From NCBI GenBank assembly GCA_041660605.1, contig JBAZWB010000002.1, forward strand, positions 66,216-130,215: DNA of 64,000 nt, in the 5' to 3' direction. Below, in pieces: positions 11,809 to 45,689 of the stretch. A program made the position numbers and the translations under genes. Under the pieces are notes generated by a model. It was not told the origin of the DNA. It worked only from the letters and a program-made list of their open reading frames with translations, and made no database searches. This stretch comes from Patescibacteria group bacterium. Its GTDB lineage: Bacteria; Patescibacteriota; Patescibacteriia; UBA10025; JAHIVO01. Positions within the stretch are counted from its first letter, which is position 1, and the number at the start of each line of letters is the position of its first letter.

Positions 11809-12363
11809 CTAAACTTCATACTCCCACCACGGCTGCCAGACGAATTCCTCATTGACGCACTGCTCCAGCGTACGGCGGGCGGTCAGGACGTCCAGGGCAT
11901 AATAGGTGGCGCGGTGGTCAACGATTAAAATAATTTTGTCCGGGTATTTATCTTTTATTTCCAATAAAAAACCCTGCACCCGCTCTACTGCCTGCTCATA
12001 GCTTTCGCCATTGGGAAACGGCTCTTTTATTTTTTTCGGTTTAAGGGCATAAACTTCCTTGGTGGTATGGCCGTTTAAATCCCCGTAGCTGATCTCCCGC
12101 AAGCGCCGGTCATAAATGACCGGAATTTTTTCGCCAAAAGCGATGGCTACCGTATCTTTCGCCCGTTGCAAATCCGAGGTAAAAATCAGATCAATTTTAA
12201 TATTTTTAAACCTCTCTCCCATTTCCGCTGACTGCTTTCTGCCCAATTCCGAAAGCTCCCCGGGATTTTGGCCGGTAGCCAGCCCTCTGGCATTATCGGT
12301 GGTTTCTGAATGCGTGGCGAAATATATTTTCATAAAAAAATTGTTATGCACCGCCACTCCCAC
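11809..12363 (-). CDS. Histidine phosphatase family protein (phosphoglycerate-mutase-like)
   Basis: 184 aa; N-terminal catalytic-His context MKIYFATHSETTDN, PGM-like fold pattern. Confidence 0.75.
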   Translation of the reverse strand: MGVAVHNNFFMKIYFATHSETTDNARGLATGQNPGELSELGRKQSAEMGERFKNIKIDLIFTSDLQRAKDTVAIAFGEKIPVIYDRRLREISYGDLNGHTTKEVYALKPKKIKEPFPNGESYEQAVERVQGFLLEIKDKYPDKIILIVDHRATYYALDVLTARRTLEQCVNEEFVWQPWWEYEV

Positions 12364-12483
12364 CCTGTCATTCTGAGGAGTCCCGCCGCAGGCGGGCGAC
12401 GTGAGAATCTCCTGGGTTCAGGCACCGCGGGGATTGTCACGTCATTCGCTTCGCTCATTCCTCACAATGACAGTAGAGTGGCG
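12351..12483. repeat. ~130-bp element with ~25-bp terminal inverted repeats (CGCCACTC..CTGTCATT); a solo copy of its terminus lies at 11051..11070
   Basis: 12351 ccgccactcccaccctgtcattctgagga ... tcctcacaatgacagtagagtggcg 12483; 11051 cgccactctactgtcattgt is the exact reverse complement of 12464..12483. Confidence 0.45.
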
Positions 12484-32456: not shown

Positions 32457-35423
32457 CTAATTATTTTCCTGTGGATTCTGGTTTTTTGAATATTCCATCA
32501 ATTTCTCCTTGGCTAAAGCATTGTCGGGATTATATTCCAGGGCCGCCTGAAAATCTCTTCTGGCAGAATCAGTATTTCCCAGCTCGGACTCGATCACACC
32601 CAGGTCAGTCTGTATCATAGATATGTCACTAAGAATTTTTGCTCGGTCATTAACCACCCAGATGACTGAATTAACAATCTCCGGCGAATAATGGCCAGCC
32701 GCAGCTTCTAATATCGTCCTGGCTTTTTCTTTATCCCCAGACTGATAATACGCCGCGGCAAAATAACGGTGCAAAACAGGCTTGCCGACGGGATTCAATG
32801 TCACTGCTTTCTCAAGTATTTTTTCCGCTTCCGTATATTGCTTGGACCTTAAATAATACAAACCTAATTCCTCATACGCCTGGTAATCACCCGGGCTTGA
32901 GCTGATTGTTTTATTCAACTCATCCAAATATTCTTTTGTGTAAAACTCTTTATTATCGGGTATTAATAAATATTCGGTCCGGGCCAACCCATAATGCAGA
33001 TTGTAATTAAGCGGATCAAATTTCAGCGCACTTCTATAAATACTCTCGGCCTGCGCCAATTCCATGTTATCAGTTTTTTGTACGGCTGACTCCGCCGAAT
33101 TTGTTGAATAGAAGAAAATTAAGCCGCCAACCATGACCAACAGGGCAACCGTACCAATAACCGCTTTTGCCGTTTTTGAAAAAAGGAAAGTATCCCGCTG
33201 ATTAACATTACTAATGCCGGCTTGCCGGTTTATCAGGAAAATTTTATAGAAAACACCGAGTACGGTAAAAAAAACTATAAGGTTGGTAGGAAACTGCCAG
33301 TCCAGCTCCACGAAATTATGGATCAGGCTGCCAACCAACCCCATACCCAACCCCGCTATCAGTGCTTTATCTTCATTATTCTGAATATTTTTCAAGCCTT
33401 TCATGGCCTGGAAGACCATCAGCAGAATTATCCCGACAAACCAGAAAAAAGCCAGACCGCCAGCTACCCCGGTTTCCGCCAAAACTTTCAGATAAATATT
33501 ATGAGGATCAATGGAATAATATCTGATATCGCTTAAATACTGGCGATAGGCAATGCGATATGTGTCAAAACCTGTGCCAATAAACGGATTATGCAGAATT
33601 ATTTCTTTCGCTCCCTGCCAAAAATACAGGCGAGCAACCACGGCGTTTTCCTCGCTGGTCTCAATGGAGTAATTGATGGCCGAGCTGGTCTGATTTTCAC
33701 TGGCGGAAACCTGCGCTTGATGGGTCTTCAGCTGATTCAGCCCCCACCAGCCAACTGCCACCGCCGCGGCAACAATAACCACCGCCAGCGCAATAAAACG
33801 CCAATTTTTCCGGTAACTGCCGGCCAGCCAGCATATTACGCCCAAAGGTATGATAATGCTTAGCCAGCTGCCTCGGGAATAAGTCAGCACAAAAACCAGA
33901 GTAATAAGGATAGCAATTAATATCAGGCCGATTTTTGCTTTTTTATTTTTTATAAAAAACAAGTACGAATAAACTAACGGCAGGACGAAGAGCAAAAATC
34001 CGGCAAAAGGGTTATGCTGGTAAAAAGTCGAGGTGGCACGCAGATAATTGAAGATTTCCGTAGTCGTGAAAAAATAAATGCCGATCAGCGACAAAATAAC
34101 GCCCAGCATTATGATCAGATAGGCGATCTTGTGAGCCTCAGAAACCGCCGCGATCAGGTAGAAAACCCCGAAAAAAATAATAATATAAGACAGCCAATGC
34201 AGCAGCTGGTAATAGCCGTCATACGGCGAGATGGAGAAAAAAATTGAGATAACCGTTACTAAAAGGAAGGCCGCCAATGGCAAAATTAAATTATGCTTCC
34301 ATGGTATCTTGCCCTGGAGAGCGGGTTTTTCTGAACGCAGAGCGAAAAACACCAGCGGAAAAGCCAGAATAAACACGAAGGTGCGGGCGATCAGATCCCG
34401 GCCGCCGGTAAAAAAACTTGGTACCACGACGATTAAGGCCAGCATTATGATGGATATAAGTTCTCTGAAATTTCTGATTTCAAAAAAGTAATAAATAATC
34501 CCGAATCCCAGCGATAGCGAACGGCCTAAAATGAAAAATGGCATTGTTATGCCTTCAATAAAGCCACGCCTAAAAGCCCGCCAGGTCAGAGGAGCAATAG
34601 CTAATAAAAAAATCAGAGCTTCCGCCAGCATTATATACTTGGCAAATGGCACCATCGGCCACAGGCAAAGCGTAAACAAAAATATAAAAACTGCCGCAAT
34701 CTGCAGTTTCAATGTCTGGGGGGTGTAAGAATCACGCAGAATTTTTTTCGGATAATTTTTATACACATCCATGCGCCAGTATGAGCGCCAAAATTTCACC
34801 TTTAAATAATTCCTGAAATTATGCGGGTGCTGGTGATAGACGGCCCCATCTTTAATAAATACTATTTTGTGTCCGGCATTGGTCAGTTTATAGGCAAACT
34901 GCACGTCTTCACTCATTTTCAGATCTTCTTTGAAGCCGCCTAATTCCAAAAATAATTTTTTCCTGACAGCACCGGCGGAAAAATCCATAAAATCCAGGCC
35001 TTTTGATCTGGCCATTTTGCTGTATCTTTCCTCAAATTCCACCTGTACTAACCGGGAAATTAATCCAACTTGCTTTGTTTTATAAACTCCTTTTACCGCC
35101 GCAACTGACTGCTCGGCAAACGGCCTGGTCATTTTTTCAATCCAGTTTTCTGCTGCAACGCAATCAGAATCTATGAATAATAAGATATCGCCGGCTGCCT
35201 CTCTGGCGCCATAATTCCTGGCTGAGGCTGGCCCGGCATTTTTCTTCAGTAGATGCTTAACATCTGAAATCTTCCCGACAATCCGCCGTGTCTGGTCATA
35301 AGAGCCGTCATCAACAACAATAATTTCATAATTATCTCTGGAAACGGTCTGCTTTTCCAGTGATTTTAAGCAGTCTTTTATTGTTTTTTCAGCGTTAAAA
35401 ACTGGGACGACTACCGAGATCAT
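32457..35423 (-). CDS. Tripartite fusion: GT2 glycosyltransferase + polytopic O-antigen-ligase/Wzy_C-like domain + C-terminal TPR repeats
   Basis: 988 aa; N-terminus VVVPVFNAEKTIKDCL...IIVVDDGSYDQT...FIDSDC (GT-A DxD); about 12 TM helices in the middle; TPR-like YQAYEELGLYYLRSKQYTEAEKILEKA at the C-terminus. Confidence 0.7.
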   Translation of the reverse strand: MISVVVPVFNAEKTIKDCLKSLEKQTVSRDNYEIIVVDDGSYDQTRRIVGKISDVKHLLKKNAGPASARNYGAREAAGDILLFIDSDCVAAENWIEKMTRPFAEQSVAAVKGVYKTKQVGLISRLVQVEFEERYSKMARSKGLDFMDFSAGAVRKKLFLELGGFKEDLKMSEDVQFAYKLTNAGHKIVFIKDGAVYHQHPHNFRNYLKVKFWRSYWRMDVYKNYPKKILRDSYTPQTLKLQIAAVFIFLFTLCLWPMVPFAKYIMLAEALIFLLAIAPLTWRAFRRGFIEGITMPFFILGRSLSLGFGIIYYFFEIRNFRELISIIMLALIVVVPSFFTGGRDLIARTFVFILAFPLVFFALRSEKPALQGKIPWKHNLILPLAAFLLVTVISIFFSISPYDGYYQLLHWLSYIIIFFGVFYLIAAVSEAHKIAYLIIMLGVILSLIGIYFFTTTEIFNYLRATSTFYQHNPFAGFLLFVLPLVYSYLFFIKNKKAKIGLILIAILITLVFVLTYSRGSWLSIIIPLGVICWLAGSYRKNWRFIALAVVIVAAAVAVGWWGLNQLKTHQAQVSASENQTSSAINYSIETSEENAVVARLYFWQGAKEIILHNPFIGTGFDTYRIAYRQYLSDIRYYSIDPHNIYLKVLAETGVAGGLAFFWFVGIILLMVFQAMKGLKNIQNNEDKALIAGLGMGLVGSLIHNFVELDWQFPTNLIVFFTVLGVFYKIFLINRQAGISNVNQRDTFLFSKTAKAVIGTVALLVMVGGLIFFYSTNSAESAVQKTDNMELAQAESIYRSALKFDPLNYNLHYGLARTEYLLIPDNKEFYTKEYLDELNKTISSSPGDYQAYEELGLYYLRSKQYTEAEKILEKAVTLNPVGKPVLHRYFAAAYYQSGDKEKARTILEAAAGHYSPEIVNSVIWVVNDRAKILSDISMIQTDLGVIESELGNTDSARRDFQAALEYNPDNALAKEKLMEYSKNQNPQENN

Positions 35424-43114: not shown

Positions 43115-43882
43115 TTATAAATCTTCCGCAAAAAAAGGTTCGCGTTTTTTAAATACTAAGTAGCCGACAACAAAAACTGCCACAGTAATAAGGATAGAAC
43201 CAAAAATACCTTTTAAATCCGGGGTCTGGCCGTATATGACCGCCTCACGTGAATATTGGATAATCCGGGTCATCGGATTAAGGAAAACCCAAAAATGGTA
43301 TTTTTCCGGGATCATGGCTAGTGAATAAATTATCGGCGTGGCCCAAAAACCTGCCTGCAGCAATATTTCCCAGATATGTGATAAATCACGGAATTTTATG
43401 TTTAACGACGAAATTAAAAAACCCAGTCCCAAAACAATAAGATAAAGCTCTGCTAAAAATAAAATCAACAGCAAAAACGCCGGTGTCAACTGCACTCCGG
43501 AAAAAATAAAAAAAACGACGAAGACAATTAGATTAAGAAGTAAAGTTAAAAGAGAGGTAATTGTGGAAGCAATGACAATCAAAGTGCGGGGAAAAAATAC
43601 GCGGGAAATCAGCCCACCCTTGCTGATCAAGCTGTTTACCGCATTGGTCGTCCCTTCTGCCAGATAACCCCATAAAATTATACCGAGCAGTAAATATAAA
43701 TTATAATGTTCAATGTTAAAACGCAAAAAAATAGAAAAAACTAGATACGATATCCCGAATAAAAGCAACGGCTTAATAAAAGACCAAACATAACCCAGGA
43801 CAGAACTCTGGTATTTCAGTTTGAAGTCAGAGATCGCCAGTTCACGGATCAAATTTATTTCCTTCTGGTTTATTATCTTCAT
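43115..43882 (-). CDS. ABC-2 type polysaccharide exporter permease (Wzm/TagG-like)
   Basis: 255 aa; 6 TM helices; immediately upstream of and co-oriented with the ATPase. Confidence 0.8.
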   Translation of the reverse strand: MKIINQKEINLIRELAISDFKLKYQSSVLGYVWSFIKPLLLFGISYLVFSIFLRFNIEHYNLYLLLGIILWGYLAEGTTNAVNSLISKGGLISRVFFPRTLIVIASTITSLLTLLLNLIVFVVFFIFSGVQLTPAFLLLILFLAELYLIVLGLGFLISSLNIKFRDLSHIWEILLQAGFWATPIIYSLAMIPEKYHFWVFLNPMTRIIQYSREAVIYGQTPDLKGIFGSILITVAVFVVGYLVFKKREPFFAEDL

Positions 43883-44082
43883 GAATATCCGTCCACTTTT
43901 AATTAACTATCTCTTGATCTTTAAAAAATATTTAGCCTAATAGCTAACGACTAATTACTAGTGACTAATCTTCCAAATTATACCATTTATAAAGGCTTAT
44001 ATTCAACCTTGCCTCGAGCGAAGCCCCCGCGTGGGGGGCGGAGTCGAGAGGACCCGATAATCCACCACCTTGCTTGCCCTAG

Positions 44083-44235
44083 CCGAGACTTCTCCATTCC
44101 TCTTCGGCTACGCTCAGAGTCAGTCGAAGTGACAAGCGTTTGTTCAGGTAAAACCCTTATGATAGGCACCAGCGCTTGTCATGTCGACCATAGGCCCTGA
44201 GCTTGCCGAAGGGCCGAAGTGGAGACATCTCAGTC
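44083..44235. repeat. Palindrome-bearing intergenic repeat, copy A
   Basis: GTCGAAGTGACAAGCG (44123) and CGCTTGTCATGTCGAC (44173) form a 16-bp inverted repeat; leader GAGACTTCTCCATTCCTCTTCGGCTACGCTCAGAGTCAGTCGAAGTGACA is repeated at 44805. Confidence 0.55.
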
Positions 44236-44244
44236 AACTGCACC

Positions 44245-44538
44245 TTACCCATACCACCCCTCACTCAAATCATTCCAGCAGGGATTCATGCTATTAATCA
44301 ACCATTCTTTTTTCTCCCGGCGCCACCGTTTTATCTGTTTCTCCCTTTGTATTGCCACAAAAATATCGTCGTGCACTTCGTAATACACTAGCTTGTTAAC
44401 ATTATACTTACTTGTAAAACCCGGATATACTTTATTCTTATGCTGCCAAACACGACTTTCAAGATTTGAAGTAACCCCGACATATAAAACACTCTTCATT
44501 TTATTAGTCAGTATATAAACATAATATTGCCAGGCCAT
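44245..44538 (-). CDS. GIY-YIG nuclease superfamily protein (YhbQ/UPF0213-like small stand-alone form)
   Basis: About 97 aa from internal Met (MAWQYYVYILTN...SVLYVGVTSNLESRVWQHK...KLVYYE...REKQIKRWRREKK); the longer ORF extends to 44604. Confidence 0.8.
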   Translation of the reverse strand: MAWQYYVYILTNKMKSVLYVGVTSNLESRVWQHKNKVYPGFTSKYNVNKLVYYEVHDDIFVAIQREKQIKRWRREKKEWLINSMNPCWNDLSEGWYG

Positions 44539-44620
44539 AATAAAAATTCCTTCCGTTTGAGGAAGGCTATGGTCTAATAGTAGTATATTAATTAACTTTG
44601 TCAATCATACTAGCGTTTTT

Positions 44621-44775
44621 AACTCCAAGTCGAGATTTCTCCATTCGTCCTCGTTCCACTCGGGCTCAGTCGAAATGACATGCGTTTTTTGACGACAAAC
44701 AACACCTGATAAAACCACCCAAGTCTGTCATATCGACCCCCTCGACTACGCTCGGGGCAGGCTTCGCGGAGACAT
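44621..44775. repeat. Palindrome-bearing intergenic repeat, copy B (diverged)
   Basis: gtcgaaatgaca ... tgtcatatcgac; shares the GAGACATCTCRG tail with copy A. Confidence 0.5.
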
Positions 44776-44804
44776 CTCGGCTAAGCCCCACCCACGTTGT
44801 TTAT

Positions 44805-44862
44805 TCCAAAAACGAGACTTCTCCATTCCTCTTCGGCTACGCTCAGAGTCAGTCGAAGTGAC
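44805..44862. repeat. Partial copy C of the same repeat (left arm only, 50/50 identical to the copy A leader)
   Basis: cgagacttctccattcctcttcggctacgctcagagtcagtcgaagtgaca. Confidence 0.5.
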
Positions 44863-44883
44863 AGGGCGTATACCCCCAACACA

Positions 44884-44912
44884 AAAAGCGCCCAAGAAAT
44901 GAGCGCTCTTTG
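44884..44912 (-). terminator. Rho-independent terminator downstream of the pilin gene (minus strand)
   Basis: Minus-strand reading AAAGAGCGCTCATTTCTTGGGCGCTTTTTG. Confidence 0.5.
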
Positions 44913-44937
44913 ATTATAATAAGTCTGCTTTTTTACA

Positions 44938-45459
44938 TTATCCCTCACATTCTAAATCAGCAGCTAAATCGCCACAAACTGGCGCAGTAGTAGATACCCA
45001 GTTTGAACAGGAAGTACCATCCCCTTTCAGCCAATACCAGTGCGAAGTGCTAGTACTTGGTGATTCCATTAATGCATAGACTATGTAATATGGTTCGAGT
45101 TCTCCTGGGGTTGCGCCACAGGCAACATATTCATAGTTATATAGATTTGAATCCGCTCCCGCAGATCCTGCTTTTGGATCATCCGGTACTACTGAAATAT
45201 AATCCGTTGCCAATAGCGTGCCTAAAACGGATTTAGCATTATCTAATGCCGCAATCGAAGTAACATTTGGATAAGTACTGGAATTATCGTCTGAATACAG
45301 CACTAACCCGGTCCTAATCTGACCGAGGTCTGATTTTCTAGACGCGTCGCGGGCTTTTTCTCTAGCACCGTTCAGGGCCACCAAACCGATGGTAGCCAAA
45401 ATACCGATGATGGCGATAACCACCAATAACTCAATGAGTGTAAAACCTTTCTTTTTCAT
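44938..45459 (-). CDS. Type IV pilin (candidate major pilin)
   Basis: About 173 aa from [22 protein letters not shown]; [19 protein letters not shown]; C-terminal Cys pair. Confidence 0.8.
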
Positions 45460-45689
45460 GAATTCACCCCCTTTCATATGTTGAGAACGGTGAATCTTTT
45501 AATTGACTTATAACGATTCACAGATCACGGATCCGAGCTGACCCGTGATAATTATGAGCCAAAAAAGTATTACCGGTCTGCTGTTAATTTTTATTATTGA
45601 CCAAAGAACTATTGATAATATTGAATAAGTGATATATAAATAATATCATATTTTACCGTAATTGTCAAACAATTATCCACTATTTCCCT

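Follow-up and report, generated by a model that had tools for sequence, protein, structure and literature searches.

The probable ssn gene and its flanking repeats

The DNA analysed here (the window) was a stretch of 64,000 nucleotides from a Patescibacteria group bacterium (contig JBAZWB010000002.1 of assembly GCA_041660605.1, positions 66,216 to 130,215 of the forward strand), and the subject is its intergenic gap 43883-44937, bounded by a type IV pilin gene on one side and an ABC-2 permease gene on the other, which holds an open reading frame (ORF) for a GIY-YIG protein together with hairpin repeats. An earlier note made from the letters of the sequence (the original prediction) had placed a GIY-YIG gene between structured repeats in this gap, and both were present as a 97-aa ORF at 44245-44538 and three repeat copies designated A, B and C. 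The gene and the repeats were compared with the Ssn nucleases and the SRM hairpin repeats described by Chenal et al. (2025, Nat Commun 16:2388; PMC11893778), and the gene is called ssn below. The repeats were parsed with R1, a covariance model built from aligned units, and the cassette was resolved into the following features.

44809..44867, minus strand: SRM-like unit, copy C (R1 53.3 bits; exact duplicate)
44722..44783, plus strand: SRM-like unit, decayed, other arm of B (R1 26.5 bits, E = 3e-5)
44627..44684, minus strand: SRM-like unit, right arm of B in the gene sense, (+)-type and upstream of the gene (R1 58.3 bits, E = 2.8e-14)
44549..44604, minus strand: ssn promoter-like site and hairpin of the 5'-untranslated region (5'-UTR), with the segment of the hairpin and ribosome-binding site kept in a second locus (L002, see below)
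44245..44538, minus strand: ssn gene, predicted 97-aa single-domain GIY-YIG nuclease, SsnA homologue (PF01541 and alignment)
44173..44236, plus strand: SRM-like unit, arm of A, directly 3' of the gene (R1 39.7 bits, E = 5.5e-9)
44080..44138, minus strand: SRM-like unit, other arm of A (R1 51.7 bits, E = 2e-12)
44014..44049, plus strand: unit-core remnant with the inner G·A loop and the GC stem, without the outer boxes (R1 20.6 bits, E = 0.0014, model positions 12-45)

The protein encoded by the ORF contained the Pfam GIY-YIG domain PF01541 (E = 2.8e-17, residues 4-77) and no other domain, T5orf172 being matched weakly and below its cut-off, and its size and architecture fell within the description of Ssn proteins (single-domain GIY-YIG, about 90-150 aa). 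Identity to the SsnA orthologue of Neisseria gonorrhoeae was 46% over 93 aa (query residues 4-96, pairwise E = 6e-27), and the tblastn search against 7.3 Gb gave the match to gonococcal SsnA at E = 1e-17 with 91% coverage. With the gonococcal orthologue as the reference, the protein passed the homology threshold of Chenal et al., for which Neisseria SsnA must be matched by blastp or tblastn with E < 1e-10 and a cover of at least 75% (PMC11893778). The catalytic residues Y6, Y17 and E64 of SsnA were aligned with Y8, Y19 and E66 of the window protein, and these three, together with R29, H33 and N85, were invariant among 34 homologues. The gonococcal reference protein itself was 94 aa long, carried Y6/Y17/E64 and was encoded amid nine canonical NTS copies; it was taken from NZ_CP119140.1 (L206), which bears the PLSDB label "plasmid" and is actually a 2.17-Mb N. 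gonorrhoeae chromosome, with 12 annotated features only and with the ssnA orthologue unannotated. Proteins of the family were 60-70% identical across phyla, and one homologue (L167, 61% identical) had a canonical published SRM on either side, at -19 (+) and +17 (-), a geometry like that of the window. For the 97-aa protein and the 179-aa pilin ORF no record was found.

The gene had been called "YhbQ-like" by the original prediction, and this was probably a mislabel. UPF0213/YhbQ proteins (cd10456) likewise consist of a stand-alone GIY-YIG domain of about 100 aa; however, the match of the family profile to the UPF0213 structures 1zg2 and 1ywl was only remote (33 and 23 bits, E = 4e-7 and 7e-4), as against the E value of 6e-27 for Neisseria SsnA. 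We know of no hairpin repeats reported in association with UPF0213.

Upstream of the gene, a promoter-like site TTGACA-16-TACTAT was read at 44604->44577, followed at 44566->44549 by the 5'-UTR hairpin CCTTCCTCAAACGGAAGG and a T-run, which include the Shine-Dalgarno sequence GGAAGG. Such a hairpin and T-run holding the Shine-Dalgarno sequence suggests that expression may be tightly limited and that the segment may have a regulatory role.

Copy A (44084-44232, with inverted-repeat arms at 44123-44143 and 44168-44188) formed a near-perfect 149-nt hairpin on either strand (-70 kcal/mol, z = -7.6), which was equalled by 0/200 shuffles, and copy B (44631-44779) was decayed, being about 75% identical to A (z = -1.8). 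Copy C (44813-44863) was identical to the left arm of A (44084-44134) at 51/51 bases, in agreement with the duplication of the leader of copy A that had been claimed for it; the leader string had 2 matches in the window against 0.00 expected. A repeat of about 150 nt had been taken as the unit, and it was replaced in the R1 parse by five oriented hairpin units of about 56 nt and one core remnant, copies A and B each being two units head-to-head and copy C a single unit. The head-to-head pair was dropped as the repeat unit on account of the solo 45-56-nt units in other phyla and the doublet statistics given below. Each unit was laid out as TGTCAYTTCGAC, a variable GC stem and then GGAGAARTCTCG.

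Oriented units of NTS-like layout flanked the gene on both sides, with 44627-44684 upstream, 44173-44236 downstream and more beyond, and the unit 44173-44236 ended 8 nt from the ssn stop codon. The outer units formed doublets, which were the convergent doublet of 44722-44783(+) and 44809-44867(-) with a 25-nt spacer, and the doublet of the remnant 44014-44049(+) and 44080-44138(-) with a 30-nt spacer. The three best-scoring units (within 44080-44867) all lay on the minus strand, which is the coding strand of essentially all genes of the window and is G-rich by GC skew, so that the unit sequence there would be exposed on the lagging-strand template.

Fold, spread and gene association of the repeat class

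The fold was derived from an alignment of 102 distinct units. In its outer part AUUUC is paired with GAAAU and is followed by tandem G·A/A·G, a C-G pair and a bulged pyrimidine; the 17-51 pair (Y-R) covaried, being C-G in 85 sequences and U-A in 9; the second purine loop was GA/GA, GAA/GAA or GGA/GGA; and the apical stem showed heavy covariation in a hypervariable sequence. Paired cells amounted to 92.6%, against 77% in shuffles and 32-64% in slid registers, and doubly-changed cells numbered 161, against 48 in shuffles. The register C17-G53 given by RNAalifold was rejected for C17-G51 with a bulged Y52, T17 always co-occurring with A51. Two unit subtypes alternated within doublets, from which an additional swap of C16-G53 to G16-C53 was obtained. 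Among the loops the C[GNA]G triloop was the commonest class (33/105), with GNRA tetraloops in 10, and in the direct-repeat GA...GA loops the G·A pairs form on one strand only. The one-strand G·A pairs and the GNA triloops point to a hairpin of single-stranded DNA (ssDNA). Counts of G·T and A·C in the apical stem (about 13 vs 8) were too low, and relied too heavily on the alignment, for the folding strand to be identified.

For the spread of the class, the pattern TGTCAYTTCGAC-N20-35-GGAGAARTCTCG (22 exact and 2 two-fold degenerate positions) was searched in one-genome-per-species bacterial assemblies (596 Gb), where about 0.3 chance matches were estimated. Matches were found in more than 118 stretches of DNA from at least ten phyla, often in many copies per genome; they came from Planctomycetota, Bacteroidota, Chloroflexota, Actinomycetota and Bacillota, and further from Pseudomonadota, Synergistota, Omnitrophota, Riflebacteria and Patescibacteria. 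The original prediction had named uniqueness of the repeats to this locus as a point that would tell against it, and the repeats were instead found in these many phyla and concentrated next to the gene. There the element took the form of a 45-60-nt oriented unit in which a GC-rich stem, free in sequence, separates a 5' box from a 3' box, the boxes being identical across at least ten phyla, and many units sat shortly after stop codons. Long tandem arrays of units with a period of about 140-195 bp were observed in L026 (3254-3732) and L042 (33-879; CP170502.1, a metagenome-assembled genome of Pseudomonadota), in a complete 5.85-Mb genome, and these arrays resemble BIME-like mosaics. No match to Rfam was obtained at the gathering threshold for the window and 18 loci, and nothing relevant at E up to 10 across 43900-44950; a literature search by the repeat sequence strings returned unrelated primers only; and no exact match to the unit pattern was present in 2.9 million viral contigs.

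A weak variant was detected elsewhere in the window as a solo hairpin at 12362-12416(+) (R1 13.4 bits, E = 0.17), which belongs to a different SRM-like subclass and has the structure TGTCATTCTGAGGAG-[TCCCGCC GCA GGCGGGC]-GACGTGAGAATCTCC. Its TGTCATTCTGAG box was repeated beside a 65%-identical GIY-YIG gene on a plasmid of Planktothrix agardhii (L207; NZ_LR882964.1 17356-20616), where the neighbours of the Ssn-like gene were an MmeI-type restriction-modification enzyme on one side and the DISARM helicase DrmA on the other, the setting of a defence island.

The association between units and genes was estimated in 80 metagenomic loci picked by protein similarity alone. The density of units was 1.67 per kb up to 100 bp from the gene and 0.02-0.05 per kb beyond 300 bp, that is, a 40-80-fold enrichment beside the homologous genes, and a unit lay within 300 bp of the gene in 23/80 loci. 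Conversely, among the repeat-selected loci most units were solo and a GIY-YIG gene was nearby in 3/118. The recurrent geometry was a (+) unit just upstream of the gene and a (-) unit abutting or overlapping its stop codon, to which the window conformed with 44173-44236(+), the ssn gene, 44627-44684(-) and an outer doublet on either side. In its most compact form (L121 603-960 and L126 4036-4393) the whole module was about 360 bp, the upstream minimal 28-nt unit providing the Shine-Dalgarno sequence (GGAGAAATCTC-ATG) and the downstream inverted unit overlapping the 3' end of the ORF. The C-terminal tails of several homologues were translated repeat (RDFS..., DFSLQSK). In the repeat-selected loci, convergent (+)(-) doublets with 5-28-nt gaps prevailed over divergent pairs with variable gaps (27 vs 9), and the ssn gene thus occupies the spacer position of such tight convergent doublets.

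A second neighbourhood was given by L002, another contig of the same metagenome, in which a 92% identical gene was found again amid full and partial repeat copies and with the same 5'-UTR hairpin, its neighbours being a helicase and PPDK. The collinear block common to L002 corresponded to window positions 44823->44083, ended exactly at a unit edge and had unrelated flanks beyond.

Comparison with the Ssn/SRM system and rival explanations

In the published system, N. meningitidis SsnA is a 94-aa single-domain GIY-YIG protein (cd10448, GIY-YIG_unchar_3), by which the NTS repeat CGTCATTCCCGCGMAVGCGGGAATCYRG is bound only as ssDNA and on one strand only, and the cut site lies a few nucleotides upstream of the repeat (PMC11893778). 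SsnA depends critically on the three bases that precede the palindrome and on the C that follows it, and RNA is not bound by the characterised SsnA proteins (PMC11893778). The ssnA gene as a rule has these repeats on its flanks; at least one SRM was reported near 71% of ssnA homologues, and SRMs on both sides of 42% (PMC11893778). In Neisseria, transformation by NTS-bearing DNA is lowered by SsnA, and the Ssn enzymes were reported as the first site-specific nucleases cutting only ssDNA (PMC11893778). The nuclease activity on the palindrome for which the original prediction had asked has in this way already been found for the family, SsnA homologues binding and cutting ssDNA next to their flanking hairpins (PMC11893778).

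The locus is alike in having a single-domain GIY-YIG protein of about 95 aa with the aligned Y/Y/E residues and 46% identity to gonococcal SsnA, and repeats which are multi-copy, intergenic and enriched beside the gene. The NTS layout is CGTCATTCCCGCG-MAV-GCGGGAATCYRG, and the window units consist of a GTCAT box, a hairpin and then ATC, keeping GTC before and C after the palindrome, the positions that are critical in NTS. In contrast to the published repeats, the stem of these units is interrupted by two tandem G·A loops and by a bulged pyrimidine, and it is usually topped by a GC apical stem of hypervariable sequence; their length is about 56 nt vs 28 nt, and the host is a Patescibacteria genome (Candidate Phyla Radiation, CPR); the terms 'Patescibacteria' and 'Candidate Phyla' are absent from the main text of Chenal et al. 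(PMC11893778). Chenal et al. look for SRMs up to 500 bp away on either side of the gene with the expression HGTCWYN(0-2)YYVSBRHN(0-5)WNVSBRGN(0-2)RNCYNB, which had 0 matches in the whole window and fitted 0/225 collected units; the canonical NTS used as control was matched. The units thus form an SRM-like class that the published survey would miss.

Taken together, the SsnA homology, the catalytic residues, the fold, the copies in many phyla, the enrichment and geometry beside the gene and the two neighbourhoods make it very probable that the locus is an Ssn/SRM module, in which an Ssn nuclease is combined with ssDNA hairpin repeats of cognate type. The locus is explained by the system published in 2025, and the residual novelty is the repeat class, its structure and the CPR host. 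What goes beyond Chenal et al. is a class negative for the SRM expression, with a covariation-supported fold containing G·A mismatches and with identical boxes in at least ten phyla.

By homology with the Neisseria and Wolbachia enzymes, the protein would be inactive on duplex DNA or RNA. Once a unit is exposed as a single strand, in the course of replication, DNA uptake or recombination, its TGTCAYTTCGAC...GGAGAARTCTCG strand would fold into the hairpin; the Ssn protein would then bind this hairpin by its sequence as well as its structure and cleave that strand a few nucleotides to the 5' side of the TGTCA box. We infer both the ssDNA-specific cleavage by the window protein and the position of the cut by analogy with the characterised enzymes. 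The role could be to limit the recombination of incoming ssDNA bearing a unit, as in Neisseria, or it could be the spread of the gene and the repeats as a selfish, REP/RAYT-like element.

Several points weigh against the assignment to the Ssn/SRM system. As none of the 225 units fitted the published SRM expression, we infer cognate recognition from architecture and association. Of the five units, 44722-44783 and 44173-44236 were decayed, as was the remnant, and within the 64-kb window the units were confined to this locus plus the one weak variant. The (+)gene(-) orientation found here differs from that of the units around gonococcal ssnA, and the membership of the protein was tested against the gonococcal orthologue.

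The rival of most weight was an autonomous GIY-YIG mobile element, insertion-sequence (IS)-like or homing-like, with (+)unit-ssn-(-)unit of about 360-510 bp as its unit, of which the gene-less (+)spacer(-) doublets and the solos would be derivatives resembling REPINs or miniature inverted-repeat transposable elements (MITEs), or homing sites, recombination control being secondary; we consider it unlikely as the explanation of the locus. The inverted units that bracket the gene in the loci of about 360 bp (L121, L126), the position of the gene in the spacer of tight convergent doublets, the 60-70% identity of the proteins across phyla and the many homologues on very short contigs, a finding to be expected of genes with repeats on either side, are in its favour, and the occurrence of the 92%-identical gene and units in the unrelated neighbourhood of L002 fits mobility. 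An insertion-sequence-like NTS-ssnA-NTS layout and an analogy with REP/RAYT were remarked by Chenal et al. themselves (PMC11893778). Against it, no target-site duplication, conserved insertion site or pair of empty and occupied sites was found, most units were solo with a gene nearby in only 3/118 repeat-selected loci, and the unit pattern had no exact match in the 2.9 million viral contigs. GIY-YIG enzymes are hydrolytic nucleases without a covalent intermediate, so that a mechanism of strand transfer would be lacking. Moreover, such an element overlaps the Ssn/SRM module and does not exclude it. The mobile or recombinogenic cassette of the original prediction stood in so far as the protein and the repeats form one functional unit of IS-like geometry, but neither an empty site nor a target-site duplication supported its movement.

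The search for an empty site was made by exact-protein look-ups of the permease, PilC and the pilin, and only the same genome or contigs breaking at 44113 and 45421 were returned. Short-read contigs of other samples (SRR6484324, SRR18595301) were 100% identical to the window up to these positions and stopped there; one of the breaks falls within the exactly duplicated 51 nt, the other in the conserved N-terminus of the pilin. Such ends are repeat-induced assembly breaks, by which the many homologues on tiny contigs are also accounted for. L001 was dropped as an independent relative, being the same genome (100% identical over 20,255 bp). A bolder form of the mobile-element proposal, which we hold to be doubtful, is that the repeat class and the Ssn subclade together constitute a self-propagating GIY-YIG mobile element, marked by a two-tier hairpin with tandem G·A mismatches and by near-invariant boxes in at least ten phyla and unseen by the published SRM search, a module of about 360 bp that would spread by ssDNA cleavage and copy-repair and would seed solo and doublet derivatives; if true, it would be the first prokaryotic class of transposable or homing elements driven by a stand-alone GIY-YIG domain.

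Taken as ordinary intrinsic terminators or mRNA-stabilising hairpins between the pilin and ABC operons, with the GIY-YIG gene as an unrelated passenger, the palindromes would agree with the location of the cluster between a terminator-like hairpin of the pilin gene and a promoter-like site of the ABC operon, and with the many units elsewhere close behind stop codons. Nevertheless, no unit carried a T-run, the single terminator-like site of the scan being the ssn 5'-UTR hairpin; the boxes were identical across at least ten phyla, the units were enriched 40-80-fold beside homologous GIY-YIG genes, and characterised SsnA proteins do not bind RNA (PMC11893778). The T-run scan, the phylum spread and the enrichment effectively refute this explanation, to which we give scarcely any credence. 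The reading of the unit as a structured non-coding RNA, of a small-RNA or ribozyme family, that lies near GIY-YIG genes by chance would be in keeping with the strong covariation of the apical stem, with conserved purine-rich internal loops that recall RNA motifs, and with the transcription of the unit in compact loci, where it carries the Shine-Dalgarno sequence of the gene. It is nevertheless very improbable, given the lack of any Rfam match even at E up to 10, the units in both orientations as doublets, and the excess of GNA triloops, typical of DNA mini-hairpins, over GNRA tetraloops (33 to 10); the homologous NTS is bound and cut as ssDNA, not as RNA (PMC11893778).

With the Ssn/SRM module as the preferred explanation, likenesses to other known systems were also considered. 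The REP/BIME or REPIN repeats with their RAYT enzymes share with it short oriented hairpins that stand singly, in inverted doublets or in mosaic clusters, one small nuclease gene set between repeats of its own, probable recognition in ssDNA, and two alternating unit subtypes comparable to the Y and Z REPs of BIMEs. They differ in that the window enzyme is GIY-YIG and not HUH/Y1 (TnpA_REP, Y1_Tnp), with no covalent tyrosyl intermediate expected, that the units are without the GTAG/CTAC tetranucleotide, and that the boxes hardly differ from phylum to phylum, REPs by contrast being lineage-specific. IS200/IS605 elements (TnpA Y1) are likewise small, with imperfect end hairpins, ssDNA substrates and no visible target-site duplication, but the protein family is another one, and neither a conserved tetranucleotide target nor TnpB or omega RNA was present here. 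The GIY-YIG homing endonucleases (I-TevI, SegA-E) have the catalytic domain and a selfish-element-like genomic behaviour in common with the locus; however, those enzymes measure 200-300 aa, carry a DNA-binding domain at the C-terminus and cleave duplex DNA at the homing site, whereas the window protein ends right after the catalytic domain and scored 25.5 bits for TIGR01453 against a cut-off of 56.

Genomic setting and meaning for the Ssn family

The cassette was found at a junction of functional modules, as had been proposed, with the type IV pilus genes PilM, PilB, PilC and pilin upstream of it and an ABC transporter and glycosyltransferases downstream. The features next to it were the following.

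44938-45477, minus strand: type IV pilin gene (N_methyl motif)
44879..44910, minus strand: terminator-like hairpin and T-run after the pilin gene, read from the sequence (context, outside the cassette)
43115-43882, minus strand: ABC-2 permease gene

The hairpin at 44879..44910 coincided with the terminator part of weak Rfam alignments and was unlisted by the simple terminator scan. The promoter-like site of the ABC operon was at 44006->43977.

The original prediction had further proposed that the cassette mediated the rearrangement by which the pilus locus was split, and this role is unsupported, as no unit was present at the far boundary of the glycan genes in the R1 scan of the window and no empty site was found. 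Pilus genes were present on both sides of the glycan genes, with three pilin-like ORFs and a prepilin peptidase at 28.4-32.4 kb of the window, and a 988-aa protein with GT2, Wzy_C and TPR domains was encoded between pilus genes at 32457-35423(-). Wzy_C is the domain of pilin O-oligosaccharyltransferases, and on account of this protein the glycan block may belong functionally to the pilus locus, as a part for pilin glycosylation rather than an intrusion.

The cassette adjoins the gene of the major pilin of the type IV pilus, and in Neisseria natural transformation, in which ssDNA enters the cytoplasm, is modulated by SsnA (PMC11893778). A tie between the position of the cassette beside the pilin gene and a role in transformation is speculative, and against it L002 shows that the pilin-adjacent position is not obligatory.

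For the Ssn family, in which each pair of enzyme and repeat is a potential molecular tool (PMC11893778), the locus adds a Patescibacteria member and brings to light a large class of cognate-type repeats, of very wide phylogenetic range, that was missed by the published motif. The covariation-supported structure, with its two tandem G·A loops, bulge and apical stem of free sequence, predicts what the protein reads, and the (+)gene(-) geometry together with the tight (+)spacer(-) doublets provides a concrete handle on the mobility of these systems. The repeat class may also explain some of the 29% of ssn homologues that were reported without a detectable SRM (PMC11893778).

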